Of a stretch of 64,000 bases of DNA, positions 26,894 through 46,465 are shown piece after piece (positions within the stretch are counted from its first letter, which is position 1; each line of letters starts with the position of its first letter). The translations under genes were made by a program, and so were the position numbers. The notes under the pieces are model-generated. The model was not told the DNA's origin. It worked only from the letters and a program-made list of their open reading frames with translations, and searched no databases. The stretch comes from an uncultured Eubacteriales bacterium. GTDB lineage: Bacteria; Bacillota_I; Bacilli_A; RF39; UBA660. The stretch covers positions 905 to 64,904 of the forward strand of contig CAJMAC010000007.1 in NCBI GenBank assembly GCA_905211265.1, read 5' to 3'.

Positions 26894-27023
26894 CTGAATT
26901 AGTAAATAAAGGTACTTGATTGCTAATTTTATTATTAGCATTTCGTAACTTCTAAATTTATTGCACTATTGTTTAAACTGTTATTATAATAGCGATATAA
27001 TTGTGTAAAAAAATTTTTATATA

Positions 27024-27045
27024 TTTGTCCGAAAATGTAGACAAA
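27024..27045. promoter_or_regulatory. Palindromic operator upstream of the XRE/C-protein gene
   Basis: TTTGTC-N10-GACAAA, about 60 nt upstream of the 27106 start. Confidence 0.4.
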
Positions 27046-27105
27046 ATCTAAAAAAAGTGATAAAATTAAATCTAGAAGGAATAATTTGGAGAAAGAAGTG
27101 AAAAT

Positions 27106-27627: not shown

Positions 27628-27636
27628 GAGGATTAT

Positions 27637-28815: not shown

Positions 28816-28883
28816 AATGAGTGAAAAGGGTAACTTTTTGAAGAAAAATTTGTTAAAATAAATATAATGTCAGGAGGAAAAAA

Positions 28884-30056: not shown

Positions 30057-30070
30057 TTCCTTCTTTTTTT
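30048..30070 (+). terminator. Terminator of the methyltransferase gene
   Basis: GAAGG-gtagtt-CCTTC followed by T7. The stop codon lies in the loop. Confidence 0.6.
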
Positions 30071-30077
30071 GTTCATA

Positions 30078-30108
30078 TTTTTGTAATATATTCAAAATAT
30101 TACAAAAA
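30078..30108. promoter_or_regulatory. Perfect 12/12 palindromic operator
   Basis: TTTTTGTAATAT (30078-30089), 7-nt centre, ATATTACAAAAA (30097-30108). It abuts the -35 box. Confidence 0.6.
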
Positions 30109-30112
30109 TATA

Positions 30113-30140
30113 TTGACAATATGTTCAAAATGTGTATAAT
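30113..30140 (+). promoter_or_regulatory. Near-consensus sigma-A promoter of the GHKL operon
   Basis: TTGACA (30113-30118), 16-nt spacer ending in TGTG, TATAAT (30135-30140). Confidence 0.7.
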
Positions 30141-30165
30141 ATGTGGTGAATGAGGGGTGACTGTC

Positions 30166-30381
30166 ATGGAACAGAAAAAAGCAAAATTTAGAGAATTAGC
30201 TGAAAAAAGAGTTAGCAATGCTTTAAAGCAAATTCAATTAATTGGTAATCTTTCTAACACAAGAGTATATGAATATGATGAGGAAGACATTAAGAAAATA
30301 TTTAAAACATTAAAAGAGGAAATTGGTTTGTCTGAAGCAAAATTCAAATCAAAAGGTAGAGATAGAAATTTTAAGTTTTAG
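30166..30381 (+). CDS. Small charged helical protein (71 aa), first gene of the GHKL operon
   Basis: Track start is GTG 30157. GAGGGG precedes the ATG at 30166. No motif. Confidence 0.55.
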   Translation: MEQKKAKFRELAEKRVSNALKQIQLIGNLSNTRVYEYDEEDIKKIFKTLKEEIGLSEAKFKSKGRDRNFKF

Positions 30382-30386
30382 AGGGA

Positions 30387-32645
30387 GTGATATTGATGTT
30401 GAAGAAATTATTTAATGCAAATAGCGTTAAGGATATTAATGAATTGATTAAACTATTAGAAAGTAAGTATGATACAGAATGGATTCCAGTAGGTAATAAT
30501 GAATCAAATCATTCAACTTTTCAAATGCTTGAAAGAGGCGAGAATGGAATTATAGAAAGGTTAACTAATGCAATAGATGCAGTTATTGAAAAAGAGTATT
30601 TTTTAAATCCTGATGAAAATTTAAATAGTCCAAGAAAATCATCAGAAAAATACTTTGGTATAAAAGAAGGTAATTTGGCTAACTACAATATTAAAGATAT
30701 TAAGAAAGAACTTAAAGATTTAGTAAAATTAAACGTTTTAGAATCAAATAAAAAAGGAAGACCCACTATAGAGATTAGAGATTATGGGATCGGATTATCT
30801 TCAGAAGAATTTGGTAAAACTATTTTAAGTTTACAAGGTGGAAACAAATTGAAAAAATTTTATTTAGCAGGAACATTTGGTCAAGGAGGATCAACTGCAA
30901 ATATTTTTTCTAAACACACATTATTTATCTCAAAGCCAATTCCAGAAAAGAATAATTCTAATAAAATTTCATTTACGATTACAAAAGAATTTAACGATTT
31001 AGATTATAAAACTCCAATTCATAAATATTTAGTATTAAAGAGTACTAAATGTCCTATAACTGTTGAAGATTGTAATAATGAATTTGAACCAGGTACACTT
31101 GTTAGACATATAGAAATGAATATTAATCAATATGGTAGAAGTAGTGCAAAAGCGCCAGGAGATAATAGTATTTATCATTTTGTTAATAAAAAACTATTTA
31201 ATCCAATTTTACCTATTAAAATAACAGAAAATAGATTAGAAGTTGATAGAACTAATATAGAAAGAAATAATAATACTATTGTTGCATTAGGATGTAATTC
31301 TAGATTAAATGATAATAGTAATGTTAAATATAGTGATAAATTGATTACTGAATATATATTCGGTGGAACGATAACAATTAATTATTGGATAATAAATGAT
31401 AGAAATTCATATAAAAACTATAATGATAAATCAACGCCTGTTTTATATACTATAAACGGACAGGTAGAAGGATATGAAACGGCCAATTTTTTTGAAAAAA
31501 TTGGTAAACCTTATTTATTAAATCATTTAATTGTAAATGTTGATTGTGACGGTATGGATGATAGAATTAAAGCAAGATTATTTACATCAGATAGAACTAA
31601 ATTTCAAGATAATGATTATACTGACACATTAAGAAAAAAAGTTATTAATATTCTAATCGAAGATATGAAATTAGTAGAGTTTAATAGATTCTTTAAAGAA
31701 CAAATGTTAAGTGAATCATCTGAGAATATTAGTGATGAGTTAAATAAAAAAATAGAGAATAAATTAAAGGTATTTTTAAATACAGGTGGAATTGGTAAAG
31801 TTTCTAAGGAGATTCCAACTCCAAAACCACCAAGACCAACCACATCAGAACCTTTTGAAAAACCTGAATTATTTGATTTTCCTACATTCCTTGATATTTC
31901 TAATCAAGAGCAATATGAGTTACCAATAAATAAAGATTTAGTATTAAATTATATTTCAGATGCTGACCATGAAAAATATTCAATGGAAGATAATTTGAAT
32001 TTTATAATTGAAAAAGAAAATATGCTAATATTTGATGGATTTAAATTTTATAAAAACGGGCATGGAATAATTAATTATAAATTGGCTCCAGAAGTAAAAG
32101 TTGGTGACGAAATATTCTTTAAATTATTTATAAAAGGATTTGATGATGATTCAAATTTATCATCTTCAATTATGATTAAAATTGTAGATAAAGAGAAAGA
32201 CGATCAACAAAATACAGAACAAACTAAACAACCACCAAAAATAAATACAAGATCTGTTTTTAAAACAAGCCAAGAATTTGATGAATTATTTGGTGAAGAT
32301 GAAGAATTGCCAAGTGTATTAAGAGACTCGGATGAATCTATTGATATATTTATTAATATGGAAAACAAATCATTAAGAAAACTACAAGAAAATACTACGA
32401 AAGGTAGCAATGATAATGATTCTGTTAAAATATTAAATAATGAATATATAAAACAGATTGCTTACTATAGTTTAATTTTACATATAAATGAATCTAAAAA
32501 ATCTGATGATGAAAAAATGAATGATAAATCAAAATCAGAAGAATTAAAAAGAGTAGCTATATTAATTACTGGTATGATTAATGATAATCTTTCAATTTAT
32601 ATAACAGAAAGTGGGAATAATAATGGAATTGAAGAATCTAATTAG
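30387..32645 (+). CDS. GHKL (Bergerat-fold) ATPase with large uncharacterised C-terminal region
   Basis: N box ERLTNAIDA, G1 IRDYGIGLS and G2 GTFGQGGST all fall within the first ~180 aa. There is no DHp/H-box. A PTPKPPRPTTSEP linker is followed by ~270 aa of unknown sequence. An alternative ATG is at 30396. Confidence 0.7.
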   Translation: MILMLKKLFNANSVKDINELIKLLESKYDTEWIPVGNNESNHSTFQMLERGENGIIERLTNAIDAVIEKEYFLNPDENLNSPRKSSEKYFGIKEGNLANYNIKDIKKELKDLVKLNVLESNKKGRPTIEIRDYGIGLSSEEFGKTILSLQGGNKLKKFYLAGTFGQGGSTANIFSKHTLFISKPIPEKNNSNKISFTITKEFNDLDYKTPIHKYLVLKSTKCPITVEDCNNEFEPGTLVRHIEMNINQYGRSSAKAPGDNSIYHFVNKKLFNPILPIKITENRLEVDRTNIERNNNTIVALGCNSRLNDNSNVKYSDKLITEYIFGGTITINYWIINDRNSYKNYNDKSTPVLYTINGQVEGYETANFFEKIGKPYLLNHLIVNVDCDGMDDRIKARLFTSDRTKFQDNDYTDTLRKKVINILIEDMKLVEFNRFFKEQMLSESSENISDELNKKIENKLKVFLNTGGIGKVSKEIPTPKPPRPTTSEPFEKPELFDFPTFLDISNQEQYELPINKDLVLNYISDADHEKYSMEDNLNFIIEKENMLIFDGFKFYKNGHGIINYKLAPEVKVGDEIFFKLFIKGFDDDSNLSSSIMIKIVDKEKDDQQNTEQTKQPPKINTRSVFKTSQEFDELFGEDEELPSVLRDSDESIDIFINMENKSLRKLQENTTKGSNDNDSVKILNNEYIKQIAYYSLILHINESKKSDDEKMNDKSKSEELKRVAILITGMINDNLSIYITESGNNNGIEESN

Positions 32646-33912
32646 TAATATGAATGGTGGAAATATTACTCTTGATGATGGTGTAATAAAAATCGATTCA
32701 ATTATTACTGAAGGAAAATATAATATACTTATTTCATTTTTAAATGAAAAAAATATATTTACAACAAATGATTTAAAAAAAATGAATGTTAATGATTATA
32801 ATAAATTGAAGATGGAAATACCAAATATTGATGGCGTGGGCGAAGAAAGAACCAAGTTGTTTATAAAGAAATTAGATAATGTTAGAAAAAACAAACATGA
32901 AATAAAAGCAAAAACACCAAATAAAAATGATTCTGAATATCCTATTGTAGAATTACTTGGAAAATTTAAAACTACTGTCAATTGGTCAGTAGAAATAAAT
33001 CATATATTATATAATAAATACGATGAGTATGTAGATATAAGACAAGTAAAAAATGATGGTACAAGAGGGAAAGGAATTTCTATAAAAAGACAAGATTTTG
33101 ATAAATTTAAAGAAATTATTTCTTCTATTAATTTGGATATTATAAAAGATAAAATAGTACCTTTAGAAAGTTTAGAATTAGAATCAGGTGATAAGAATGT
33201 TGAATCTACCAATACTTTGAACTTGGAAAAAATATTTTTTGAGAGCAATGAAAAAAAATCTTTAAAAGAACAGATATTAGAAAATGAAGACAGGTTATAT
33301 AAAGTGTTTAAAGATGATTTTGGGTTAGCAATAAAATTTTTTAAAGCAAAAATTGAAAGCCTTAGGGAAGATGGAGATATTGTAAAGTTTTTAGAAAATC
33401 CATCTATTCTTGATATAAAAAAAGAACAATTTGATAAGACACATATCAAAGGTATGAAAACCGCTATTGATATAAAAAATGATTTTGATAAAAGTGATTT
33501 GAAATATACAACAATAGATAGTTTGAATTTAAATGAAAGTGTTAATACAATGACTATTTGTAGTATAGCAAATAATTTTAATGTCATGTTAGGAATGTAT
33601 TATGATGACATAACTAAATCTTTAATATTGAAATGTCAAATTAAAGATGGAACTTATGAAGATAAATGGATTAAACCAAATAAAAAACTATATTATTGTT
33701 TACAAAATGAAACAGATGAAAATTTTTCAAGACTTAGTTTTTCTAAATATCCAAATACAGTCTGTAAGAATATATTATTTGGCTATGATCTAGAAACAAA
33801 AGTATATTTATTTTATAGATATAATAAAAATGATGACTATATATATGCTGGTGAAGTTAAATTAGAAAAATTTGTAAATGGTAATAAAGCAATTATAGTC
33901 AATATCGGATAA
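32623..33912 (+). CDS. HhH + PC4/YdbC-like ssDNA-binding domain protein
   Basis: Track start is GTG 32611. The ATG at 32623 overlaps the end of the GHKL gene. IPNIDGVGEERTKLFIKKL is an HhH motif. YVDIRQVKNDGTRGKGISIKRQDFDKFKEIISSI matches the PC4 signature. The C-terminal ~230 aa are unknown. Confidence 0.6.
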   Translation: MELKNLISNMNGGNITLDDGVIKIDSIITEGKYNILISFLNEKNIFTTNDLKKMNVNDYNKLKMEIPNIDGVGEERTKLFIKKLDNVRKNKHEIKAKTPNKNDSEYPIVELLGKFKTTVNWSVEINHILYNKYDEYVDIRQVKNDGTRGKGISIKRQDFDKFKEIISSINLDIIKDKIVPLESLELESGDKNVESTNTLNLEKIFFESNEKKSLKEQILENEDRLYKVFKDDFGLAIKFFKAKIESLREDGDIVKFLENPSILDIKKEQFDKTHIKGMKTAIDIKNDFDKSDLKYTTIDSLNLNESVNTMTICSIANNFNVMLGMYYDDITKSLILKCQIKDGTYEDKWIKPNKKLYYCLQNETDENFSRLSFSKYPNTVCKNILFGYDLETKVYLFYRYNKNDDYIYAGEVKLEKFVNGNKAIIVNIG

Positions 33913-34026
33913 CGAACACATTTATATAATGTCATAACGTCATTTTGCTAAGTATTAATGAAGAAAACAAACTATAATACAAATAATACGAGTTTATGCT
34001 CTTTTTGGGTTTTGGGAGGTGATATT

Positions 34027-37000
34027 TTGTATTATATTAATGATAAAGTAAAAGAAAAATTTAATAATGATGATTATTTTGACGGAAAAGAATATGTAAG
34101 AAAAATAAAAGAAGCGATTAAAACAAAAGATATTAAATCTATTGGTGTTTATGGCAAATGGGGAATAGGAAAAACATCAATAATCAAAAATGCTATTTCT
34201 GAATTAATTGAGGAAGGAGAATACGCAGAAAATCAAATAGTTGAATACAATGCATGGAAATATAACGAATACGATTTTATGAGAGATTTTTTAATAGTTT
34301 GCTCTAATAAAATTGAAGGAGAAAAAACTGCTAAAGAACGTGAAGAAAGTTATTATAGCGATAGTTCTGAAGATAGACAATTGTATGTGATGTTATGGAA
34401 AAAACTGGGAACATTTATAAAGAAAAGTTGGCGTGTTCTTTTGTTTCTTACAATTACATATATTGTTTCAGTAATAGTAATACTTTATATAAATTATTTA
34501 AAACCAACATTGTTTGATTGTGCTGATTTATTGATACCTTTAACTCTAACTTTAATTAGTTTTATTTTACCACTATTCTTAGTTTCCGAAATAACTCACA
34601 AGTCAATAAGTAAAAAGTTTTCTCCAGAACAATTTGCAAGAGATTTTGAGGATATAGTAAAAAATAAAAAAGTATTAATTTTTATTGATGATATTGATAG
34701 ATGTAGTTATGAAGAAATAAAATCTACTTTTGATACACTAAAAACATTTATTTTAGATGAGAGTTATAATGTTAAGTTTATTATACCGGTAGATCCAAAC
34801 ATTTTATTTAATTCATTGGAAGAACAAACATACGATTATTTTTCTAAAATTATTGATTTTCCTATAGAAATAAAGAATTATACCAAAGTAAAATTTGAAC
34901 CTTTAAAAGAAGAAATATTAAAAGAAGTAAATAATGATTATAAAGAAATAGTTAGTGATGGTTTATATTTAGCATCCAAATTCTACATTGATACACCTAG
35001 AAAAATGAAAAAATTTGCAAATGAATTTGTTAATGAAATATATAATCATTCTCCTAAAGAAATATATGATAAAGGATATATGTTTGCTAAATTGATAATT
35101 TTAAAGAATGAATTTCCAAATTATTATTATAATTTAATTAGGAACTATAATACAGTTATTGAAATAACAAAAGATGAAATAACAAACTATAAATCTAAAG
35201 ATTATACTGAATCAAAGAAACAAAAAAAAGGTGTTGTATTTAGTATGAGATTGCTGGACTTCTTATCAAAAACGGACAGTGTTGATTTATATAATTTCCC
35301 AATGTATGAAAATAAAATTTCATATTCAGAATATAAAATCAAAGCTATATGTGAGGATCCGTTTGTTAAAAATAAATTTGATGATAGAGTAAAAATAGAT
35401 TTAAAAGAAAATATAGTGTATTTAGATTATGAATTTTCTGAAAATATTATTAAACCTATAATAAATAATAAATTTTTATACAGTGATCCATTAAAAAGAG
35501 TCTGCTTTCTTTTCGTCGAATTTAAAAGACAAGAAAATAGTGAAATTTTCAATAAATATTTTGAAGAAATTATTGATAATTTCGAATCATTAAAACAAGA
35601 TTGTAATTTGTTTGTTTCAGAAAAGATAAATGAAGAAAATATTTCACATTTAAATTTAAAATATATATTTGAATGTGTAGAAGATTATATCGATTTATTG
35701 AAAGAACACAATAAGAATTTATTAAAGGATAATCTTTTAATAAAGATACTTCAACTTATACAAAATAATATAGATGGGAGTTTTCAATATGTTGAAGATG
35801 AATTATTAATATTTATTCAAAAATTTAAAGAATTAAAAAATGTTGATGACCCAAATATGATTAAAATAATTGATAAATTATTATCTAATAATTTTGAAAA
35901 ATACTATAAAGAATTAGATTGGTATTTAAAGTTTAGTTCATCTGCAGGTAAAACATGCTTTGTAGGAAATATAATAAAACTAATAGAAAATAATATAGAA
36001 TTAGACGAAGAGTTAATAGAAAAATATTTAGATAATAGATATTTTTCTATAAATACAAACAACTATTTTGATAATGTATCAAATAATATTGCTGATATAT
36101 TAGAGAAACCGAGCATCTATAAATGTATATTGTCACCATTATATAACAATTTAAACAGCAAAGATATTTCTTTTGAAAAACTAGAAAATGTAATTAATAA
36201 TACTAAATATATATCTAATAATGAGGATATTAATAAACTAATTTTAAGAATAGTATTAGAAATGAAAAAATCTATTGGCTTTGATGAAACCAAATATAAA
36301 TTAATTTTAACAAACATTGGTACAGAATATGAAAAAAGCGAATCTATTAGTAATCCATTTAAAGAATTTCTCGAAGAGTGTAACGATGACGATAGATACA
36401 TTCTTCTTGGTTATAATGAAGAAACTAAAATATTTAATAACTTTAAGGTGTTAAAAAATTATAAATTATCATTTGTTAATAAAGATTCATTGTTGTTCAA
36501 TATATTGTGTAATTCATACTGCAAATTTGAAGATTTTGTTGTAAAAACAGACTTAGAAAGACATGGCTTAAAATTATCAAGTCTAAAAAATGAAATAAAA
36601 AATATAATAAAAGAAAATATTGACAATACAATTTACCTTATTAACGATTTTAGTGAAGAAGAAATTAATGATATTGATTTTCAACTTTTAAATATAAATG
36701 AAATAAAGTTAGAATATATAGAAAATAAATATTTATTAACCAAAATTGTAAATCAATTAAAGATGAATGTTGACAATAATATAAGAAATATTAAATCAAA
36801 TAAAGAAAATAAAGAATTAATAAAAGAAGAAGTGGATAAATTATTGCTAAATGCAAATAAATTATATGCAGAAATAAAATATAGCGATAAAACTTTATGG
36901 ACAAAACTAAAAATAATAAATGAGTATCTGGCATTAAATGAATTAATTGATACTTATTATATTCCAAAATTAAAAGAATATCCCAATTTAATTAAATTAT

Positions 37001-37089
37001 TTAGTGAAGGAAGATATAAAGATAATTATATGAAAGATAATATATTTGCAGATAAAATATTAATAGGTATTGGCATAAAAAATGAGTAA
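34027..37089 (+). CDS. KAP-family P-loop NTPase with membrane insert
   Basis: Track start is 33958. GGAGG lies 7 nt before TTG 34027. Walker A GVYGKWGIGKTS. Two TM helices (VLLFLTITYIVSVIVILYI, LIPLTLTLISFILPLFLV) are inserted before Walker B VLIFIDDIDRC, the KAP hallmark. Long helical C-terminus. Confidence 0.8.
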   Translation: MYYINDKVKEKFNNDDYFDGKEYVRKIKEAIKTKDIKSIGVYGKWGIGKTSIIKNAISELIEEGEYAENQIVEYNAWKYNEYDFMRDFLIVCSNKIEGEKTAKEREESYYSDSSEDRQLYVMLWKKLGTFIKKSWRVLLFLTITYIVSVIVILYINYLKPTLFDCADLLIPLTLTLISFILPLFLVSEITHKSISKKFSPEQFARDFEDIVKNKKVLIFIDDIDRCSYEEIKSTFDTLKTFILDESYNVKFIIPVDPNILFNSLEEQTYDYFSKIIDFPIEIKNYTKVKFEPLKEEILKEVNNDYKEIVSDGLYLASKFYIDTPRKMKKFANEFVNEIYNHSPKEIYDKGYMFAKLIILKNEFPNYYYNLIRNYNTVIEITKDEITNYKSKDYTESKKQKKGVVFSMRLLDFLSKTDSVDLYNFPMYENKISYSEYKIKAICEDPFVKNKFDDRVKIDLKENIVYLDYEFSENIIKPIINNKFLYSDPLKRVCFLFVEFKRQENSEIFNKYFEEIIDNFESLKQDCNLFVSEKINEENISHLNLKYIFECVEDYIDLLKEHNKNLLKDNLLIKILQLIQNNIDGSFQYVEDELLIFIQKFKELKNVDDPNMIKIIDKLLSNNFEKYYKELDWYLKFSSSAGKTCFVGNIIKLIENNIELDEELIEKYLDNRYFSINTNNYFDNVSNNIADILEKPSIYKCILSPLYNNLNSKDISFEKLENVINNTKYISNNEDINKLILRIVLEMKKSIGFDETKYKLILTNIGTEYEKSESISNPFKEFLEECNDDDRYILLGYNEETKIFNNFKVLKNYKLSFVNKDSLLFNILCNSYCKFEDFVVKTDLERHGLKLSSLKNEIKNIIKENIDNTIYLINDFSEEEINDIDFQLLNINEIKLEYIENKYLLTKIVNQLKMNVDNNIRNIKSNKENKELIKEEVDKLLLNANKLYAEIKYSDKTLWTKLKIINEYLALNELIDTYYIPKLKEYPNLIKLFSEGRYKDNYMKDNIFADKILIGIGIKNE

Positions 37090-37102
37090 CTGATAAATTT
37101 TC

Positions 37103-37121
37103 ACCCATCAGCTACCCATCA
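37103..37121 (+). repeat. Tandem direct repeats ACCCATCA x2 (possible arm-type sites of island 2)
   Basis: Copies at 37103-37110 and 37114-37121, about 100-120 nt left of the core at 37222. The position mirrors the AGGTACCCA pair of island 1. Confidence 0.4.
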
Positions 37122-37191
37122 AATTAATATAAATTTATCAATTTTTGATTAAATTTTATTAAACTCTATATGAGTTATATGTCGATATTAC

Positions 37192-37218
37192 GGGGATTTT
37201 AAACAATCCTCTTTTTTT
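37192..37218 (+). terminator. Terminator after the KAP gene
   Basis: GGGGATT-ttaaac-AATCCTC followed by T7. Confidence 0.6.
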
Positions 37219-37221
37219 AAG

Positions 37222-37417
37222 CCCCCTGAAGGAGCCGGAAGGCTCCACTTTTTGTTTAAATTTAGAATACATATACTAAGCTTGTATTCTTTTTATTCAC
37301 TCTAAGCCTAAGGTCTTAGAGTGTTAGATTAAGCCTTTATGAAAGTCTTAATCTAATTGCATATGTTAACATTTATGTAGAAGATAACTAAATAAATAAT
37401 ATCATTTCAAAAAATAA
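37222..37417 (+). repeat. Structured repeat unit B (direct repeat of unit A)
   Basis: Same order of elements as unit A, with only scattered substitutions, from CCCCCTGAAGGAGCC to TTTCAAAAAATAA. Confidence 0.85.
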
Positions 37418-37523
37418 TCAAAATATTTTGATTATGATATAATTAGTTATGTAAGAAATATTGAATTAGAGAATATTCTCTTTGTAAAAAAAGGTATAAA
37501 AATAAGAAAGTGAGGAAAGACAG

Positions 37524-37970
37524 ATGAAAGAATTTAAACAATTAGGAGCTTATGGGTTAGTTATTCAAGATGGTAAAATTTTACTTATTAAAAAATTTGG
37601 AGGTCCTTATGATGGAAAATTAGATTTACCAGGTGGAACAATAGAGTTCTGCGAAAGACCGGAAGAGGCTTTAAAAAGAGAATTGATGGAAGAAGTTGGT
37701 ATAGAAGTAGTTGATTATCAATTATTTGATGCTGATTCTGTTGCCTTTGAATGGCAATTTAAAGAAGATATTTTAGTGAAGGTACATCATACTGGTATTT
37801 TCTTTAAAGTTTCAAACTATAATAATGAAATTAAGAAAGAAGTAAAAGTAGATGAAGTAAATGATGATTCACTTGGCGCAAAATTTTTTGATATTGATAA
37901 ATTGTCTAAAAAAGAATTATCTACTATAGCCATAATGGAATTAGAAAAATTAGGGTATAAACTTAATTAA
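37524..37970 (+). CDS. NUDIX hydrolase (cassette gene)
   Basis: Nudix box GGTIEFCERPEEALKRELMEEVGI. Confidence 0.8.
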   Translation: MKEFKQLGAYGLVIQDGKILLIKKFGGPYDGKLDLPGGTIEFCERPEEALKRELMEEVGIEVVDYQLFDADSVAFEWQFKEDILVKVHHTGIFFKVSNYNNEIKKEVKVDEVNDDSLGAKFFDIDKLSKKELSTIAIMELEKLGYKLN

Positions 37971-38053
37971 AAAAATTTAATAAATTACATATTGTGCGTT
38001 TTCCTAAAAAGATAAAGAAAAAAGTAAAATAAATATTTATATTTTAACTTAAT

Positions 38054-38087
38054 TAGAATACATATTACTAAACTTGTATTCTTTTTA
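38054..38087 (+). repeat. Repeat unit D (terminator hairpin only)
   Basis: TAGAATACAtattactaaacTTGTATTCT followed by TTTTA. Confidence 0.7.
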
Positions 38088-38185
38088 TTATATTTGTTTA
38101 AATAATAATAAAATTTCGCACTCTACAAAAAATAGAGTAAAAATGTCAAAGTTTTATGTTAGAATATACTTGTGGGTGAGGAAAT

Positions 38186-38917
38186 ATGACTAATTTAGGA
38201 GAAAAAATTAAAAATATAAGAATTGCAAATAATCTCAAACAAAGTGAACTAGCTAAAATGCTCTTTGTTTCCGAAAAAACAATTTCAAGTTGGGAAAATA
38301 ATAGAACAGTCCCAGATTTAAATATGATTTATAAAATATCAGACTATTTCAAAAAAAGTTTTTATTGTCTAATAAATGATGAACTTGATACAGAAAACAC
38401 AAATGAAATTGAAATAAAGTTAAAAGTTAATGAAGAAGAATATTCTAGAATACTAAATATAATAAAAAATAATTCAGTAAATAAAAGAAATGTTAATCAA
38501 ATTGATACTTATTACACTTTAACAAATAAAAAACTTAACCAAGAATGGCTAAGAATAAGAAATGAAAATGGTAAATATATATTTAATTATAAAAAGAAAA
38601 TAGATAATTCACATTATGAAAAATATGATGTATTAATAGATAATTTTAATAATCTAAATATAATATTAAATACCTTAGGAAGTAAACAAATAGGAACAAT
38701 AAATAAGAATAGAACAATTTATATATATAAAGATAAATACGAATTTTCTTTTGATATAGTTAAAGATATAGGAATTTTTATTGAAATAGAATTAATTAAT
38801 AAAAGTAATGACTTTGAAAAAGATTTCTTTGATTTATTAAATTTATTAGAAGACTTAAAAATAGATTTAAATATAGTGGATAGAAAAAAATATATTGATT
38901 ATTTAGAGGAAAAATAA
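38186..38917 (+). CDS. XRE HTH fused to CYTH (class IV adenylyl cyclase / triphosphate tunnel) domain
   Basis: N-terminal LKQSELAKMLFVSEKTISSWENNR. CYTH motifs EIEIKLKV (ExExK), WLRIRNENGKYIFNYKKK, NKNRTIYIYKDKYEFSFDIVKDIGIFIEIEL. Confidence 0.75.
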   Translation: MTNLGEKIKNIRIANNLKQSELAKMLFVSEKTISSWENNRTVPDLNMIYKISDYFKKSFYCLINDELDTENTNEIEIKLKVNEEEYSRILNIIKNNSVNKRNVNQIDTYYTLTNKKLNQEWLRIRNENGKYIFNYKKKIDNSHYEKYDVLIDNFNNLNIILNTLGSKQIGTINKNRTIYIYKDKYEFSFDIVKDIGIFIEIELINKSNDFEKDFFDLLNLLEDLKIDLNIVDRKKYIDYLEEK

Positions 38918-38919
38918 TT

Positions 38920-39546
38920 ATGAAAAAAACAGAATTAATTAAATTAAAAAAATTATTACAACAAGAAATTATTAAAAGAAATAAAATAAATACTCTACTA
39001 TCTAATGAATTAATCCAAGAATTTAAATCATTAACAAATTTAAATATCAATGAATTACAATTAAATGACAATTGGACTATACTAGAAGAAATTCTAAATA
39101 ATTTTCAAATAACCGAGTCTAATGGAATTCTTGTATGTACTGGAAGTTACTTAGTTTGTTGTAATATCTATTATCAAGAAACAGAATATTACACAAAAGA
39201 ATCGTCATTTAATAATCCCAATATAGAGTATCAAATATTTGAAGACATAGAAACGAGAAAAATGTATGTTGCTTATACAGAAAAATATATCAAAGATAAA
39301 ATAGAAGAACAAAAAAAGTATTACAATATAGAAGATATAACTCCAAGTGAATTTTGTTATAAGAAATATGGAAGATACCTAGTTAGTGACTTAATAAAAA
39401 AATATATAGTACTAAATCCTTATAATTCTTCTGAAAATAGAAATGGATTTAATGATGTTCAAAAGGATTTCTTTATAACTGCAATAGAAAAAGGTCAACC
39501 TAAAGCAAAACAATTAGTATTAAATAAATATCCAAAATTAAAATAA
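38920..39546 (+). CDS. Hypothetical protein (208 aa), second gene of the CYTH operon
   Basis: 2-nt gap to the upstream gene. No motif. Confidence 0.5.
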   Translation: MKKTELIKLKKLLQQEIIKRNKINTLLSNELIQEFKSLTNLNINELQLNDNWTILEEILNNFQITESNGILVCTGSYLVCCNIYYQETEYYTKESSFNNPNIEYQIFEDIETRKMYVAYTEKYIKDKIEEQKKYYNIEDITPSEFCYKKYGRYLVSDLIKKYIVLNPYNSSENRNGFNDVQKDFFITAIEKGQPKAKQLVLNKYPKLK

Positions 39547-39569
39547 TTAAATAAAGGAGAGTGAGTAAA

Positions 39570-40010
39570 ATGGATATAATACCTAACGGAACAGAAGTAT
39601 TAATATTTGAGTATATTAGAGAATGGGGACCAAGGCAAGATGATGAAAATTATATTAGTAAAGGTATAATTAAATCAAGTAAACAATCTGAAGACTTATC
39701 TTATCATGGAAGTCCATGGTATGAACAAATATATGAAGTATTAGGAGAAGACGGAAAAGAATATACTGGTACTTATGGTATAGGATCAGTATTTAATGGA
39801 AATATGTTTTTTAGAACAAAAGAACATCAAATTTATGTCTTAAATCTTAAAATTAGTGACAATGAAGAAAAAATATTAAAACTAAAAGAAAAAAATGATG
39901 AATATTTAAAGAAAATTGCAATATTAAAAAATGAATTAAAACAACAAAGTCAAAATGAACCAGTAAAAACAAAGAAATTAACTTTATCAAAAAATGAAAA
40001 TAATAAATAA
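39570..40010 (+). CDS. Hypothetical protein (146 aa), third gene of the CYTH operon
   Basis: Track start is GTG 39561. AGGAG lies 10 nt before the ATG at 39570. C-terminal coiled coil. Confidence 0.5.
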   Translation: MDIIPNGTEVLIFEYIREWGPRQDDENYISKGIIKSSKQSEDLSYHGSPWYEQIYEVLGEDGKEYTGTYGIGSVFNGNMFFRTKEHQIYVLNLKISDNEEKILKLKEKNDEYLKKIAILKNELKQQSQNEPVKTKKLTLSKNENNK

Positions 40011-40155
40011 TATAACTAGAATACATAAATTAAAGTAATTTTTTTCTTATGTTCACTCTAAGCCTAAAGTCTTAGAGTGTTAGATTAAGCCTTTATGAAA
40101 GTCTTAATCTAATTGCCTATGTTAATATTATATGAAAGATAACTAAATAATAATT
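40011..40155 (+). repeat. Repeat unit C
   Basis: Starts directly after the stop codon with TATAACTAGAATACA. The second terminator arm is eroded. Then CACTCTAAG...CTTAGAGTG, TTAGATTAAG...CTTAATCTAA and ...GAAAGATAACTAAATAATAA. Confidence 0.8.
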
Positions 40156-40233
40156 TTAAAGTGCAAATATGTAACTTTTAAAGTGCAAAAATTGCACTTT
40201 AAAATTGATAAAATAAATAAAATATGCTATAAT
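40154..40233 (+). promoter_or_regulatory. Fic promoter with palindromic operator
   Basis: Half-site TTTTAAAGTGCAAAT (40154-40168). Palindrome TTTTAAAGTGCAAaaaTTGCACTTTAAAA (40176-40204). TTGATA (40205-40210), 17-nt spacer, TATAAT (40228-40233). Confidence 0.55.
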
Positions 40234-40258
40234 ATTTATAGTTAGGAGAATTATTTTT

Positions 40259-41311
40259 ATGAAAGAAAAATGGAATTTAGAATTATCTAAATATATAAAG
40301 CAAGGTGAACCTACGCAAGTAGAAAAAACAAGAAACTGGGAAACAGCCATAGGACTTCAAGAAGTAGATGGTTTGAAGCCATCAAAATATTTAGTTGAAA
40401 CAGCAAAAGAACATATTGAAGGAAAAATTGAACTAGAAGAAGTTAAAGAAAGAATTAATAATTACTATAAAGTTTTAAATGATAGAAAGTCAGAAGAAAA
40501 AGAAGATAGTGAAGAAGCAGACAAAGTATCAGTAAGAATAACAGAAGTATTAAGTGATAAATCATTTAGTTTTAATCCAACTGAATTAATAAGTATTCAT
40601 AAAAAATTATTTACTGGAGTATATAAACATGCTGGTATTATAAGAAATTATAATTTTACAAAAAATGAATGGATTTTAAATGAAGATACAGTTACATATG
40701 CTTCTTATGAAACTATTATGTCAACATTAGATTATGATTTTGAACAAGAAAAAAACTTTTCTTACAAAGATTTATCACTTGACGAATCAATAAAACATTT
40801 ATGTAGATTTACTTCGAATATATGGCAAGTACATCCTTTTTGTGAAGGCAATACTAGAACAACAGCAGTTTTTATTATCAAATACTTAAAAACATTTGGT
40901 TTTAATATTAATAATACTGTATTTGCAAATAACTCATGGTATTTTAGAAATGCATTAGTTAGAGCAAATTATAAAAACTTTGAAAAGAATATTTTTGAAG
41001 ACATAAGTTATTTAGAAAAATTCTTTTATAACCTTTTGTCAAATACAAATTATGATTTAAAAAATAGATATACCCACATTGACTATATCCAAGATACATC
41101 AAACAAAGATTTAAAAAATAAAGACTATACATTAGAAGAACAAGCTATATTAAATTTAATTAAAGAAAATTCTTTTATTAAACAAGAAGAAATAGCACAA
41201 ATTATTGGTAAATCAATAAGAACTGTAAAAACTAAAATGACTGAAATGCAAGAAAAAGGAATAATAACAAGAAAAAACGGAAAGAAAACAGGAGAATGGC
41301 AGATTTTATAA
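40259..41311 (+). CDS. Fic/DOC family protein with C-terminal winged-helix domain
   Basis: Fic motif HPFCEGNTRTTAVF. C-terminal LIKENSFIKQEEIAQIIGKSIRTVKTKMTEMQEKGII is an HTH. Confidence 0.85.
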   Translation: MKEKWNLELSKYIKQGEPTQVEKTRNWETAIGLQEVDGLKPSKYLVETAKEHIEGKIELEEVKERINNYYKVLNDRKSEEKEDSEEADKVSVRITEVLSDKSFSFNPTELISIHKKLFTGVYKHAGIIRNYNFTKNEWILNEDTVTYASYETIMSTLDYDFEQEKNFSYKDLSLDESIKHLCRFTSNIWQVHPFCEGNTRTTAVFIIKYLKTFGFNINNTVFANNSWYFRNALVRANYKNFEKNIFEDISYLEKFFYNLLSNTNYDLKNRYTHIDYIQDTSNKDLKNKDYTLEEQAILNLIKENSFIKQEEIAQIIGKSIRTVKTKMTEMQEKGIITRKNGKKTGEWQIL

Positions 41312-41383
41312 TATAACTAGAATACATGTACTAAGCTTGTATTCTTTTTATTATGTAATAGTTTTAATCTAATTGCCTGTGTT
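41312..41383 (+). repeat. Repeat unit E (terminator hairpin plus truncated distal part)
   Basis: TATAACTAGAATACAtgtactaagcTTGTATTCT followed by TTTTA, then ...TTTTAATCTAATTGCCTGTGTT. Same post-stop junction as unit C. Confidence 0.75.
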
Positions 41384-41512
41384 TTAATTTATATAATTGA
41401 AATTTTAAACTAGTAAATTTTGAAAGTTTATAAAACATTGTAAAAACTTTAAAAAATAGTTTGCTATTTAAAAACAAAATGTTATAATGTTTTTGTAAAA
41501 GGAGATTATAAA

Positions 41513-41593
41513 ATGTATAATGATTTAGGAAAAAAGTTAAAAATATTAAGAAAAAGAAGAAGTATAAAACAAGATGATTTGATGTTAGTATAG
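41513..41593 (+). pseudogene. Remnant of an XRE HTH gene (26 codons)
   Basis: GGAG RBS, then MYNDLGKKLKILRKRRSIKQDDLMLV followed by a stop. It ends inside the HTH. Confidence 0.5.
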
Positions 41594-41764
41594 ATATATA
41601 GATATTTTTAATTAAAATATTTACAAGTGTATATAAAAAATGTTAGAATAAATTATAGGAAGGAAGTGTATTATGAAAACAAAATTACAAGAACAAATTG
41701 TTCTTAAACCAATTAAAGATTTAATTAGAAATAATATAGAAATAAATTTATGGGGGATATAATT

Positions 41765-42400
41765 ATGAATTTATATGAAAGAAATCAAAAACAAAGAACA
41801 TTTTTTAATGAAAAGATAGATACTTATGATGATGTACATGCTACATACATGGATACTAAAAAAACATTAGGAGATAGTCTAGATAAAGATACTAAAAAAA
41901 TACTAGACTTAGGAGCAGGAACAGGACTAGAATTAATTCATGTATTTGAATTATTTCCAAGTGCTGAAGTCACAGTCATAGATATTACCGAAAATATGCT
42001 TGAAGAATTAAAGAAAAGAAACTTTGCAGATCATGTAACAACTATATGTGGAGATTTCTTTGAAGTTGAATTTGGAGATAATTATGATGCAGTTATATCT
42101 ACATCAGCTCTTCATCATTTCAAAACTGAAGAAAAGATTAAACTATATAAAAAGATTTATGATTGTTTAAAAGAAAATGGTCAATTCATTAATTGTGATA
42201 AAATCGCCTTAACACAGGAAATAGAAGATGAACAGTTATATGAATTAGAGTATAATATAGAAAATCATAAACATATAGATACACCACTTACAGTTGAACA
42301 TGAAATAGAAATATTAAAAAGGGGTGGTTTTGAAGATATAACTTCAAGCAATGTTGATAAAGATGATTATAGTCTTATTAAGGCTAGAAAAATCAAATAA
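41765..42400 (+). CDS. Class I SAM-dependent methyltransferase
   Basis: Track start is 41750. Motif I ILDLGAGTGLE, plus DAVISTSALHH. Confidence 0.8.
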   Translation: MNLYERNQKQRTFFNEKIDTYDDVHATYMDTKKTLGDSLDKDTKKILDLGAGTGLELIHVFELFPSAEVTVIDITENMLEELKKRNFADHVTTICGDFFEVEFGDNYDAVISTSALHHFKTEEKIKLYKKIYDCLKENGQFINCDKIALTQEIEDEQLYELEYNIENHKHIDTPLTVEHEIEILKRGGFEDITSSNVDKDDYSLIKARKIK

Positions 42401-42469
42401 TTTTAGATAAGTTATTAGATAAGTTGTTGGATAAAAACTTGCAATATTTCAATAAAAAAATATTAAATT

Positions 42470-42570
42470 AAAATAAAAAATACCAATTTAAAAGGAAAAA
42501 ATTACTTAGTTGTTTTAAAATTTTACCTTGTGGCTCTAGCAAGAAATATAAGAAGTGTTGCGGAAAATAA
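42470..42570 (+). pseudogene. Orphan 3' tail of a SEC-C-motif gene
   Basis: ...LPCGSSKKYKKCCGK followed by a stop (42568-42570). An in-frame stop ~30 codons upstream leaves no gene body. Confidence 0.45.
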
Positions 42571-42641
42571 GTAAAAATATTAAAAAAATGCTAACAAGAA
42601 ATAATTTGTTGGCATTTTTAAATTTAAAAATAAAGTTTTTA

Positions 42642-42995
42642 ATGGAAGGAAATAACAATAATATTGTAATTTATCAAGCTGATGATGGAATGACAAAAAT
42701 AGATGTAAAAATTGAAGATGAAACATTATGGTTATCACAACAACATATGGCTGATTTATATGATACTACTAAATAAAATATAAGTTTGCATATTAAAAAT
42801 ATCTTTGATTAAGAAGAATTAGCAGTAAATTCAACATGTCAAAATTTCCGACAAGTTCAAAAATAAGAAAATAGAATGGTTAATAGAGAAATTCCATATT
42901 ACAACTTAGATATGATTATATCTTTAGGATATAGAATAAAATTAAAAGTTGCTACTAATTTTAGAAGATGTGGATATATCCTACAAGTATCGTAA
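42642..42995 (+). pseudogene. RhuM-family gene remnant with three in-frame TAA codons, 3'-truncated
   Basis: IVIYQADDGMTKIDVKIEDETLWLSQQHMADLYDTTK*NISLHIKNIFD*EEL...VQK*ENRMVNREIPYYNLDMIISLGYRIK. Stops at 42774, 42810 and 42864. The frame is otherwise preserved. Confidence 0.65.
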
Positions 42996-43150
42996 TCTAT
43001 TTATAAAATTTAAAATATTACACTTTTTAGTATTATAACAACATCTATACTTTTAGTACAAGAATGATTGACAGAATTAATGATAAATGTTATATTATCA
43101 TTAGATTTGTCAAAAGCAATGTTTGAACTACAAATATGGAGGAATAATAA

Positions 43151-43513
43151 ATGAAAAAAGGTAGTGTATTATTTTTATCTATTACTTTAATATGCATAGC
43201 AGTAATTGTAGTATTAATAAGATGGTTAATAGAAACTTACTATATATACATAGTATTAATTATAGCTTTTTCTATTATGATAATTAAATATTCCATTGAA
43301 AAAGAAAAAGAAGAAAATAAAGAAGAAATAAGTAAAACGTATATACCAAAAGATATCAATACTAAAAAGAACAAGAAAAAAGAGGAAAATATAGATAATT
43401 ATGATTTAGAAGATTGGCAAAAAGAATTAGTTAATGATGGAAGTTATGAACCATATAACTTTGAAGAAGAAGAACTAGAAGATGATGATTATTATTCAGA
43501 AGATGATGATTAA
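43151..43513 (+). CDS. Small 2-TM protein with strongly acidic C-terminal tail
   Basis: GGAGG RBS. Two hydrophobic helices, then a KEKEEENKEE...EEEELEDDDYYSEDDD tail. Confidence 0.55.
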   Translation: MKKGSVLFLSITLICIAVIVVLIRWLIETYYIYIVLIIAFSIMIIKYSIEKEKEENKEEISKTYIPKDINTKKNKKKEENIDNYDLEDWQKELVNDGSYEPYNFEEEELEDDDYYSEDDD

Positions 43514-43520
43514 GTAATAA

Positions 43521-43565
43521 AAGAGTAAAATAAATATAACTTTATTATATGTTTTACTCTTTTTA
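43521..43565 (+). terminator. Rho-independent terminator
   Basis: AAGAGTAAAA (43521-43530) ... TTTTACTCTT (43552-43561) followed by a T run. Confidence 0.6.
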
Positions 43566-43662
43566 TAATTAGTCATTTCTTAAAAAATAAGTAAAAAGTT
43601 ATGATATAATAGTTTTATGTAATATAAATATATTTACTTAATAATTAATGGAGGTAGTTATT

Positions 43663-46329
43663 ATGAATCCAAGAAAAGAAATGATAATAATAGATAATGA
43701 AATATCAACATCTAAAATATCATATTGTAAATATGATTCAAATGCTTATAAATATTATATAAAATATAAAAATAATGCTACTATTTATAAATATCAAAAT
43801 AGTAGAGTAAAATATATAACTTATAGTGAAAAGATAGATTTAACAAAGTATAGTTTTTTTATAAACCAAGTAAAACTAAAATATATAAAAGAAGCATATG
43901 AGTTTACTTATAATAATTATTATTACTATCATATAATTTTTGATAATAATAAACTTGGAGAATATACAGATAATCAAATAAGGAAAATAAATAATAATAA
44001 AGATGTAATAGAATATATGAAAGAAGTATCAAATATAACTTCTATTAGTACTGAAGATGGAAATAAAATATTATGTAATCAAATAAAGAAAGTAGAAGTA
44101 GATAGTCTAGAAACAGCATTAGCAAACTATTTAAAATTATCAAATAATGTAATAAGAAGTAATAATATAAATTTTCTTATTTTTCCATTTGGTTGTAATT
44201 CTAGTCAATATAAAGCAGTAGAAAATGCTATAAATAATAAAGTGAGTGTAATTGAAGGACCTCCAGGAACAGGTAAAACTCAAACAATATTAAATATTAT
44301 AGCAAACATATTAATTAGAAATATGAATTGTCAGGTAGTATCAAATAATAATGCTGCCATAGAAAATATTGAAGAAAAACTAAAAAAATACAACTTAGAT
44401 TTCTTTGAAGCACTTCTTGGAAAAAGTGTTAATAAAAATACTTTTATAGAAAATCAAAAAGTTAATATACCATTATTTAAAGAGTATGATGATATAAATA
44501 TTGAAGAAATATCTAATGTAATAAAGAAAAATAATTGTATAGTAAAACAGGTATATAATAGTAGGAAAGAAATTGCTATTTTAAGAGAAAAGAAAAATAA
44601 TTTAACATTAGAATATAAATATTTTAAAGAATATATTAAAAATCAGGATAATAATATTATAAAATTAACTAGAATAAATAGAAATAATTTACAAAAATTA
44701 TGGAATGAATTAACAAACACAAATATAAATAAAATAAATTTATTAAATAAATTAAAATATATATTTATATATAAAATAGGAAACTTTAATTTTTACAAAA
44801 ATGACATAGAAATAATAATTAATACTATACAAGATAATTTATATGAAAACGAAATAAAAAAATTAGATGAACTTATAGAAAAAGAACAGTCTTTTGTAGA
44901 AGAAAATAAAGAAATAGAAAAAGAGTTTATAAATTATTCAATGACATATCTAAAAAAATATTTATCTTTAAAATATAAAAGTTTAAGAAAAGAATACACT
45001 TATCAAGAAATAAAGAAAGATAGTAATAATTTTATAAAAGACTATCCAGTTATTTTAAGTACAACATACTCATCTAGAAATACATTTAATAAAGATTTTA
45101 AGTTTGACTATATAATAATGGATGAATCAAGCCAAATAGATGTAGTAACAGGATTACTAGCATTATCATCTGCTAAATATGCTGTTGTAATTGGAGATGA
45201 AAAACAACTACCAAATGTAGTACCAGATATAATTAAAGATAAAACAGATAAAATATTCAATGAATACAATATAGATAATGGTTATAGTTATTCATTAAAT
45301 AGTTTTTTAAGTAGTATAAAAAATATTATTCCAGAGGTACCAAAAATAATGTTAAAAGAACATTATAGATGCCATCCTAAAATAATAAACTTTTGTAACA
45401 AGAAATTTTATAATAATGAATTAGTAATAATGACTGAAGATAAAAATGAACAAGATGTAATAAAAGTAATAAAAACAAATAAAGGAAATCACAAAAGAGA
45501 TAATGCTAATCAAAGACAATTAGATATAATAAAAGATATCTTACCAGAATTAAAAAGTAATGATATAGGCATAATAGCACCATATAATGCTCAAATAAAT
45601 TTAATAAAACAAAATATAAAAGAAATAGAAGTAAGTACAGTACACAAGTTTCAAGGTAGAGAAAAAGACATAATAATAATATCAACAGTAGATGATGAAA
45701 TAACTGACTTTGTAGCAAATTCTAATATATTAAATGTAGCTATATCTAGGGCTAAGAAAAAGTTAATATTTATAGTAACGGGTAATGAAATAAAAAATCA
45801 AAACATTAAAGATTTTATAGATTATACTAAATATGTAAATATGGAAATAGAAGAAAGTAATGTATATTCAGTATTCGATCTATTATATAAACAATATGAA
45901 AAAGAAAGATTAGAATATTTTAAGAAACATAAAAGAATATCAAAATATGACTCAGAAAATATTATGTATAATTTACTAAACAAAGTATTAGAAGATTACA
46001 ACAATCTAGATTTTATTTTTAGATATCAATTAAATAAATTAATAAAAGATAAAACATTATTAACAGAAGAAGAGAAAAAATATGCATCACATCCTAATAC
46101 TCATGTAGATTTCTTAATATATAATAAGATAAGTAAAATACCATTATTAGTAGTAGAAGTAGATGGATATAAATACCATAAAGAAGGAAATAGACAAAAG
46201 GAAAGAGATGTATTAAAGAATAATATTTTATCTAAATATAATATACCTTTAATAAGATTAGCTACTAATGGTAGTAAAGAAGAAAGTATTATAAGAAATA
46301 AATTAGATGAGATAGTTAGTGATAAATAA
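43663..46329 (+). CDS. SF1 (AAA_11/AAA_12, Upf1/Dna2-like) helicase fused to C-terminal Vsr/DUF559-like PD-(D/E)xK nuclease
   Basis: Track start is 43648. GGAGG precedes the ATG at 43663. GPPGTGKT, IIMDESSQ, LKEHYRCHPKII, VHKFQGREKDIIIIS. C-terminal HVDFLIYNK...LLVVEVDGYKYH...ERDVLKNNILSKYNIPLIRL. Confidence 0.85.
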   Translation: MNPRKEMIIIDNEISTSKISYCKYDSNAYKYYIKYKNNATIYKYQNSRVKYITYSEKIDLTKYSFFINQVKLKYIKEAYEFTYNNYYYYHIIFDNNKLGEYTDNQIRKINNNKDVIEYMKEVSNITSISTEDGNKILCNQIKKVEVDSLETALANYLKLSNNVIRSNNINFLIFPFGCNSSQYKAVENAINNKVSVIEGPPGTGKTQTILNIIANILIRNMNCQVVSNNNAAIENIEEKLKKYNLDFFEALLGKSVNKNTFIENQKVNIPLFKEYDDINIEEISNVIKKNNCIVKQVYNSRKEIAILREKKNNLTLEYKYFKEYIKNQDNNIIKLTRINRNNLQKLWNELTNTNINKINLLNKLKYIFIYKIGNFNFYKNDIEIIINTIQDNLYENEIKKLDELIEKEQSFVEENKEIEKEFINYSMTYLKKYLSLKYKSLRKEYTYQEIKKDSNNFIKDYPVILSTTYSSRNTFNKDFKFDYIIMDESSQIDVVTGLLALSSAKYAVVIGDEKQLPNVVPDIIKDKTDKIFNEYNIDNGYSYSLNSFLSSIKNIIPEVPKIMLKEHYRCHPKIINFCNKKFYNNELVIMTEDKNEQDVIKVIKTNKGNHKRDNANQRQLDIIKDILPELKSNDIGIIAPYNAQINLIKQNIKEIEVSTVHKFQGREKDIIIISTVDDEITDFVANSNILNVAISRAKKKLIFIVTGNEIKNQNIKDFIDYTKYVNMEIEESNVYSVFDLLYKQYEKERLEYFKKHKRISKYDSENIMYNLLNKVLEDYNNLDFIFRYQLNKLIKDKTLLTEEEKKYASHPNTHVDFLIYNKISKIPLLVVEVDGYKYHKEGNRQKERDVLKNNILSKYNIPLIRLATNGSKEESIIRNKLDEIVSDK

Positions 46330-46344
46330 TTATATATATTTTAT

Positions 46345-46465
46345 TATGCTCACTATAAGCCTTACTATGTAAGTCTTATTAGTGTTGTTATTAGACCTTA
46401 GGCTAATAACAATATGCTCATTGCATCTATTATATATAAGCAATAACTATATACTAATATTATTT
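46345..46465 (+). repeat. Repeat unit F (diverged homologue of units A-C)
   Basis: CACTATAAGCCTTACtatGTAAGTCTTATTAGTG and TTGTTATTAGaccttaggCTAATAACAA hairpins, with a ...AAGCAATAACTATATACTAATATTATTTT tail. Same element order as units A-C but a different stem sequence. Confidence 0.6.

Follow-up and report, generated by a model that had tools for sequence, protein, structure and literature searches.

Modular palindromic repeats confined to one defence hotspot in a gut Bacilli species as probable homology patches for cassette turnover

Introduction

How do defence hotspots held between fixed core genes change their contents? The turnover of such "core" hotspots without mobility genes is an open question; for cDHS1 and cDHS2, the core defence hotspots of Pseudomonas aeruginosa, turnover by homologous recombination has been proposed (PMC10250203). 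The question is raised by a 64,000-nt stretch of DNA from an uncultured gut Bacilli species (contig CAJMAC010000007.1, positions 905 to 64,904; GC content 23.7%), here called the window. Downstream of recG, short gene cassettes in this stretch are punctuated by copies of a structured, multi-hairpin repeat. A first-pass annotation read the array as a cassette acquisition and turnover platform, conceptually like an integron but lacking IntI, or alternatively as REP- or MITE-like elements (repetitive extragenic palindromes or miniature inverted-repeat transposable elements) that double as terminators. Our analysis favours another answer. The repeat modules are bound to this one locus and probably act as homology patches, at which cassettes are swapped or lost by homologous recombination and gene conversion. 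No new recombination system is revealed. The locus does give a sequence-level example of hotspot turnover in which structured repeats inside the hotspot may be internal anchors that split it into exchangeable units, and it provides a test case for integrase-free shuffling.

Results and Discussion

A modular repeat that can begin at a stop codon

A repeat search and alignment gave three full copies (A, B and C), two fragments (D and E) and a diverged lineage (F), all in one orientation (Table 1). The repeats lie where the first-pass annotation had placed them, and copy A is an addition to the left of the range that it had covered. Four hairpins and a tail motif make up the family. hp0, a GC-rich recG-type terminator hairpin with a T-run, is confined to A and B. 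hp1, TAGAATACA..TGTATTCT with a T-run behind it, is carried by A, B, D and E and is degenerate in C. hp2 (CACTCTAAG-N8-CTTAGAGTG), the directly abutting hp3 (TTAGATTAAG-N13-CTTAATCTAA) and the tail motif AGATAACTAAATAA are carried by A, B and C. The element thus comprises a putative intrinsic terminator, two abutting imperfect palindromes and an AT-rich tail, and copies C and E open at an upstream gene's stop codon. The identical 18-mer said to span the stop codons of two unrelated genes occurs exactly twice (0.1 expected), and the core 19-mer across the hp2-hp3 junction is present three times in the window (0.05 expected). The proposed folding also held, with predicted-fold z-scores of −2.6 to −4.4.

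Copy A is 100% identical to positions 7302-7503 of L007 (L-numbers denote the sequences used for comparison), where it directly follows recG. Judged by this identity, copy A is the native sequence downstream of recG. Copy B is 91.7% identical to A over 204 nt, and its right flank runs into a promoter that it has in common with copy A of L007. The same copy C is present in L005, L009 and L040-45. Alignment of copy E with its orthologues, which are intact in L017 and L041-45, showed that a 48-nt internal deletion took hp2 and the left arm of hp3. Copy F has the architecture of the standard copies with different stems. The direct repeat ATTATATATA (46329-46338 and 46429-46438) borders its 100-nt hairpin block, which behaves as a presence/absence indel, since it is missing at the orthologous place in L017 and L018; in L020, L023 and L028 F stands after the helicase-DUF2726 gene or its 3' remnant.

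Downstream of copy D, which is an hp1 terminator only, CACTCTA-N6-TAGAGT at 38119-38138, immediately before the XRE-CYTH promoter, preserves the outermost 7 bp of the hp2 arms. This may be an hp2 remnant reused as an operator.

Strain breakpoints cluster at the copies

An exact-protein look-up of RecG led to contigs from many human-gut metagenome samples, with common upstream genes and divergent downstream genes; the protein is identical on at least 23 contigs that differ in their downstream content. Towards the other end, nearly every contig has its own set of restriction-modification (R-M) or other defence genes on the upstream side of the response regulator gene at 60.6 kb. As variable content thus lies beside both RecG and the response regulator, the interval from recG to the two-component genes is a hypervariable defence hotspot. 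To its left the window is core genome, with recG at the end.

We recorded 18 distinct synteny breakpoints between window coordinates 16.5 and 46.5 kb and scored a breakpoint as being at a copy when it fell within 15 nt of one. Ten of the 18 did so, on 3.6% of the interval (binomial P = 1e-10, about 15-fold enrichment). For more than half of the strain breakpoints, therefore, cassette boundaries coincide with repeats, as the first-pass annotation had proposed, and the repeats are tied to variable content and not scattered through the core genome. L005 and L009 join the window at the right end of B (homology starts at 37423), L007 just after D (homology starts at 38094) and L017 at the left edge of C, and L018 departs from the element immediately after hp3.

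Several strains carry hybrid copies. In L007 a copy that we call r2 stands behind a 184-aa gene and is separated from C by methyltransferase and CYTH cassettes. L017 and L030 are without these cassettes and have one copy whose left flank is that of r2 and whose right flank is that of C. Copy A is joined to the right flank of r2 in L016, and a copy in L019 has the left flank of B, the right flank of A and an internal mosaic in the order B, A, B, A. L019 also shows a KAP-element-XRE join. Orthologous E copies have long or short hp1 alleles according to strain, which match those of paralogous copies. By their flanks, the hybrid copies mark cassette deletions and show that copies recombine with each other.

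The junctions are found in at least five positions over the ~170-bp element: within the hp1 left arm, past hp1, immediately behind hp3, past AGATAAC, and another 12-40 nt to the right. An integrase places all junctions at one cleavage point, a criterion that has been used experimentally for Vibrio attC sites (PMC12614218). Junctions distributed in this way, together with conversion tracts, argue for general homologous recombination and against a site-specific reaction. The earlier proposal of a cassette platform consequently stands as far as a turnover zone with copies linked to breakpoints is concerned, but its integron- or attC-like mechanism does not fit the scattered junctions and mosaic alleles.

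In the mechanism that we favour, the copies would be terminators or spacers between independently promoted cassettes and, at the same time, patches of portable homology of 130-200 bp. RecA-type recombination and gene conversion between copies, on the same chromosome or in incoming DNA from another strain, would delete, insert or reshuffle cassettes. A cassette looped out between two direct copies would take one copy along and could be reinserted, in the same orientation, at any other copy, so that an integron-like outcome would be reached without an integrase. The island integrase docks separately, at the CCCCCTGAA core in the recG terminator beside the array. Dependence on RecA, circular intermediates and the terminator function of the copies are putative parts of this scheme.

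The island integrase uses a separate site

The 9-mer CCCCCTGAA has exactly three copies in the window, at 16566, 26691 and 37222. Homology to L005, L007, L008 and L009 ends at 16574 and resumes at 26691. The 9-mer is duplicated at the two ends of the intervening segment (Island 1), and the empty site is visible in L007. From these three observations, sequence comparison identifies Island 1 as a tyrosine-integrase insertion of the classical kind, placed at the front of the recG terminator and outside the repeat family. The island supplies a replacement terminator hairpin at 16575-16605. Its enzyme is a phage-type island integrase and, as the first-pass annotation held, the only recombinase recognised in the window; no HUH, RAYT or transposase gene was recognised there either. 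The CCCCCTGAA site that it uses is distinct from the element, and the occurrence of the core in A and B explains their left edges. The sister species L050 and L065 (RecG 82-83% identical) retain the core together with a covarying terminator hairpin, and the core in them is invariant. The covariation of the recG terminator stem (26700-26723; L016, L050, L065) takes the forms GGAGCC/GGCTCC, GAGGTC/GACCTC, GACTAGCC/GGCTAGTC and GAGACGC/GCGTCTC. Clustered at 90% identity, the Island 1 integrase falls in a group of 2601 members.

The segment between A and B is bracketed by cores (26691 and 37222) and by 205-bp element copies and, apart from a divergent junction in L019, was seen in the window haplotype only. 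It invites the explanation that site-specific islands have accreted in tandem, with the repeats as att duplications at the recG terminator and the integrase-less A-to-B block as a remnant like a cis-mobilizable element (CIME). As in CIMEs, serial elements occupy one att site by the 3' end of a conserved gene, here with three CCCCCTGAA cores, and the A-to-B block has att copies and no integrase. CCCCCTGAA cores bracket both Island 1 and this block, L005, L009, L040-48 and L049 have related integrase islands at this core, and in L019 the cargo gene differs although its 130-bp right flank, which joins core, hp0 and element, is the same. Among the copies, however, only A and B carry the core; C, D, E, F and r2 lack both core and hp0, start with hp1 immediately behind a stop codon and have nothing to do with the att site. 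The haplotypes L007 and L030-39 carry two to four copies with no integrase within the recovered sequence. Moreover, the A/B duplication of 205 bp extends to the right of the core only and shows mosaic conversion. Tandem accretion could account for the A/B pair at most, and we consider it unlikely as an explanation of the family.

The family is confined to the recG-proximal part of the hotspot

Scanning for the exact 19-mer gave no true match in 185,579 GTDB species representatives (one genome each), where the lone hit, in a cyanobacterial sequence (L001), is due to chance, and no match in the IMG/VR viral contigs. A metagenome collection gave four matches, all in the recG locus. Copy B had no BLAST match among plasmid and phage records. 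With an nhmmer profile derived from ten copies, the family was detected in recG-proximal contexts only, and there was no copy in ten right-flank loci (cassettes of other strains, from other samples) or in 10 kb of core genome. Neither was the element found in the sister species L050 and L065, nor in the right half of the hotspot, whether in the window or in ten contigs from other samples. A strict, sequence-independent scan of 400 kb for two abutting long hairpins returned essentially the known copies only; at low stringency the scan gave 69 hits versus about 53 in shuffled sequence, no better than chance. Each haplotype has 2-6 copies, and every copy detected, across the three large collections as well as some 0.9 Mb of fetched contigs, lies in one locus, with the limit that the collections were scanned with the exact 19-mer and that no closed genome of the species was among the sequences scanned. 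Within these searches the family is restricted to one species and to the recG-proximal part of its hotspot.

This restriction means that the family is not a dispersed REP or MITE, and also that it is not a general punctuation of the hotspot. The alternative of the first-pass annotation, a genome-wide REP/MITE-like repeat, was therefore not borne out by the collection scans and the nhmmer search. The BIME/REP elements of Escherichia coli, the pneumococcal BOX and RUP elements and the Correia elements of Neisseria are composite intergenic hairpin modules, which often follow terminators and are substrates for recombination and rearrangement. The present family has hairpin modules in variable combinations as they do. 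Like a selfish or regulatory repeat of the REP, BOX or MITE kind that doubles as a terminator, with an incidental link to cassette boundaries, it is intergenic and palindromic, stands after a terminator and is built of several modules; copies decay by deletion, and a 10-nt direct repeat, a possible duplication or slippage substrate, borders the F indel. But the known families occur throughout the genome, with tens to hundreds of copies, and are frequently associated with a RAYT or transposase, whereas here there are 2-6 copies in one locus of one species and no such gene in the window; no terminal inverted repeats were seen at the ends of F, and breakpoints are enriched about 15-fold at copies. 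As a selfish or regulatory repeat of this kind the family is very unlikely. We place it with the known intergenic palindromic repeats that act as recombination substrates, and its unusual trait is its confinement to one defence hotspot.

The unitig-style Logan contigs L002, L003, L014, L015 and L052 break inside copies, which leaves cassettes as separate short contigs. The repeats will fragment the locus in metagenome-assembled genomes from short reads, a point of use in the annotation of such genomes.

Hairpin maintenance and the integron-like reading

The first-pass annotation had taken the preserved hairpin order of F, with its different stems, as a sign of selection on structure. MAFFT could not bring F and the standard copies into register, and the stems were scored by hand. 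Between the two lineages we counted six compensated stem pairs; within lineages five changes were disruptive, two preserved a wobble pair and none was compensated, and whole hairpins are deleted in D, E and r2 of L007. The argument is weak. Three loops are inverted above unchanged stems: those of hp2 and hp3 in copy C of L007, and, compared with the window, that of hp3' of F in L020, L023 and L028. Loop inversion and the maintenance of palindromes are products of template switching on hairpins, as is known from quasipalindromes. Because template switching yields such patterns, long-term palindromy requires neither a binding protein nor an RNA function, and by this analogy the hairpins are probably kept mainly by palindrome self-correction.

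The hairpins are positioned between a terminator and the next promoter. A structured non-coding RNA was considered and rejected: there was no Rfam match at gathering thresholds, a tRNA scan found nothing, the loop inversions complement the loop sequence and the stem changes within lineages are uncompensated. Other roles for hp2 and hp3 were set aside as well. As XRE operators they lie about 300 bp from the start of XRE173 and are not conserved with the genes; as a minus-strand terminator they have no T-run; as an internal promoter the elements contain no promoter match of 10/12 or better; and as a small open reading frame they hold, by inspection, an 8-codon frame at most. A palindrome-associated element of the IS200/IS605 type (PATE) was rejected, since the copies show no dispersal and the loss in E does not amount to a precise excision.

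The resemblance to chromosomal integron arrays (attC, or Vibrio cholerae repeats) goes some way. Both have co-oriented, strain-variable cassettes with many defence genes, an imperfectly palindromic repeat of ~120-150 bp at or next to the stop codon, high similarity among the repeats of an array, and hybrid repeats that mark cassette loss. The difference is that IntI, attI and the Pc promoter are absent here and that no IntI-type recombinase adjoins the array. An attC site is one long bulged stem with R''/L''-L'/R' boxes, whereas the present element is a terminator followed by two separate hairpins with stems of 9-10 bp, and inspection found no GTTRRRY/RYYYAAC pair at its ends. Further, the cassettes here are self-promoted, the crossovers are unfixed and the hotspot is punctuated in part.

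An integron-like or hairpin-directed platform would have hp2 and hp3 fold in single-stranded DNA and be recombined by a tyrosine recombinase, or by an HUH or IS200/IS605-type protein, encoded elsewhere. The co-oriented cassettes, each followed by a structured imperfect palindrome from the stop codon on, would suit it, as would the mismatched or bulged bases in the hairpins, the single orientation of the copies and the clean 100-nt presence/absence polymorphism of the F block; attC x attC events would also yield hybrid copies. Yet the junctions vary over the whole element where a fixed cleavage point is expected (PMC12614218), the alleles are mosaic, and the only candidate enzyme in the window has its site elsewhere. 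Hairpins are deleted or disrupted in many copies whose cassettes are retained, and the element does not accompany the Fic homologs of other species. Nor does the orientation of the genes call for such a platform. All genes from 37.5 to 46.3 kb are indeed on the plus strand, as the first-pass annotation noted, but so are 42 of the 50 genes of the window, with a GC skew of +0.18; the one-directional run reflects a genome-wide leading-strand bias and is not specific to the array. With no dedicated recombinase recognised in the window, cassettes that have their own promoters and Fic homologs that do without the element, the integron-like reading of the first-pass annotation is opposed on several sides, and we regard a hairpin-directed platform as highly improbable.

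The locus also compares with cDHS1 and cDHS2 and with the minimal mobile elements of Neisseria, which are likewise hypervariable regions between fixed core genes with little or no mobility machinery of their own. In those the homology resides in the flanking core genes, whereas here there are internal patches of homology too.

Eight of the 18 breakpoints lie away from the repeats and are ordinary microhomology or illegitimate events, a further point against a site-specific platform; they include the 41561-43302 deletion, the replacement of the middle of the SEC-C gene and an internal deletion in the helicase gene. Some observations weigh against homology patches as the full account. The founding events that placed the module after the stop codons of unrelated genes were not observed, and homologous recombination explains maintenance and shuffling better than origin. 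Dependence on RecA is presumed, and the rest of the genome of the species was sampled indirectly, so that a few diverged copies may exist elsewhere. Finally, the four hairpin types are all built alike, with an outer stem that ends in TAAG, then a C/T mismatch, an inner stem and a triloop, and this, with the six compensated pairs, may mean that something binds them. Taken to its limit, the design could make the paired, mismatch-bearing hairpins the sites of a hairpin- or single-strand-specific recombinase encoded elsewhere, a new integron-independent platform for defence cassettes on which the recombination signatures are a secondary overlay; we give this extension very little credence.

Genes and debris between the repeats

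The coordinates of the features are collected in Table 1.

Table 1. Positions of the repeat copies and neighbouring features in the window
Feature	Position	Strand	Content and evidence
recG	14431..16431	+	Pfam RecG_wedge/DEAD/Helicase_C; conserved left anchor of hypervariable hotspot
attL core CCCCCTGAA	16566..16574	+	In front of recG terminator
Island 1	16575..26690	.	Tyrosine integrase 16661-17776 (minus), AAA_25/DnaB-like, XRE, DUF4379-NUMOD, TnpV (Pfam)
Copy A	26691..26905	+	Core 26691-26699, hp0 26700-26723, hp1 26732-26765, hp2 26774-26799, hp3 26800-26832, tail motif 26858-26871
A-to-B block	26906..37215	+	XRE controller, type II restriction endonuclease (MTaX1), C5 methylase, 752-aa and 433-aa unknowns, KAP NTPase (Pfam; PADLOC REase_II)
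Copy B	37216..37420	+	Core 37222-37230, hp0 37231-37254, hp1 37263-37294, hp2 37298-37323, hp3 37324-37356, tail motif 37382-37395
Copy D	38054..38091	+	hp1 terminator only
Copy C	40008..40150	+	Starts at stop codon of 149-aa gene; degenerate hp1 40017-40045, hp2 40054-40079, hp3 40080-40112, tail motif 40137-40150
Copy E	41309..41395	+	Starts at Fic stop codon; hp1 41318-41349, right half of hp3 41362-41377
Debris zone, repeat-free	41514..43150	+	XRE stub, SEC-C N-terminal 15 codons, methyltransferase 41750-42400
Debris zone, rest	~42528-42571; 42642-42990	+	SEC-C tail; RhuM pseudogene
Helicase-DUF2726 (Mko/Hhe-like) cassette	43648..46329	+	Pfam, PADLOC; copy F at its 3' end
Copy F	46339..46465	+	hp2' 46351-46384, hp3' 46385-46412, tail-like 46440-46454

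The gene calls of the first-pass annotation (NUDIX, XRE-CYTH with two unknowns, Fic, methyltransferase and helicase-DUF2726) were confirmed. The Fic protein carries a winged helix, the methyltransferase is of class I, a small membrane protein is encoded, and the helicase is of the SF1 type, fused to DUF2726. A repeat after every unit had been described; it holds for several units, but there is none in the stretch of the methyltransferase, the debris and the membrane-protein gene. Among the cassettes, PADLOC and Pfam recognised type II R-M with a controller, a KAP NTPase and the Mko/Hhe-like helicase-nuclease, and further PIN, type I R-M and nSTAND3 families; an exact-protein look-up of the PIN_12 protein found no record.

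The gene remnants listed earlier are also real. The XRE stub (41514-41594) has 26 codons and the RhuM pseudogene three in-frame stops. L007 carries an intact SEC-C gene of 529 aa, the middle of which has been replaced in the window by the methyltransferase, at a breakpoint away from the repeats. L005, L009 and L017 have a 1.7-kb deletion from 41561 to 43302 at a 13-nt A/G-rich microhomology. The deletion join fuses the region of the XRE stub to the middle of the membrane-protein gene.

Strong sigma-70-like promoters precede the Fic, membrane-protein and XRE-stub genes; by these predictions the cassettes have promoters of their own. Fic homologs with 78-86% identity in other Bacilli stand in core contexts and retain promoter and operator, with no element beside them. 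The operator-like block of the Fic gene (40160-40235) consists of two direct AAAGTGCAAA repeats and an inverted copy before the strong promoter. It is kept in other species (L053, 5890-5950; L059, 5890-5960), and L059 has a second copy of the block downstream of the gene (7090-7150).

Other variable features were seen in and around the hotspot. In the haplotype group L030-L039 (for example L030, 16065-16500) a deletion reaches from within the Fic gene to upstream of the SIR2 gene; with it the right half of the hotspot is lost entirely, two-component and ABC/FtsX genes included. An ABC-F gene (ABC_tran_Xtn) at 10709-12334, within 10521-12371, is carried by some strains and missing from others whose flanks are otherwise identical, and the strong double hairpin that precedes it (10641-10702) may serve as a leader or attenuator. 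L022 (6498-9915) and L025 (1740-5503) have, in the right half of the hotspot, type I R-M loci with several hsdS genes or half-genes and an adjacent tyrosine recombinase; these arrays look like phase-variable hsdS shufflons.

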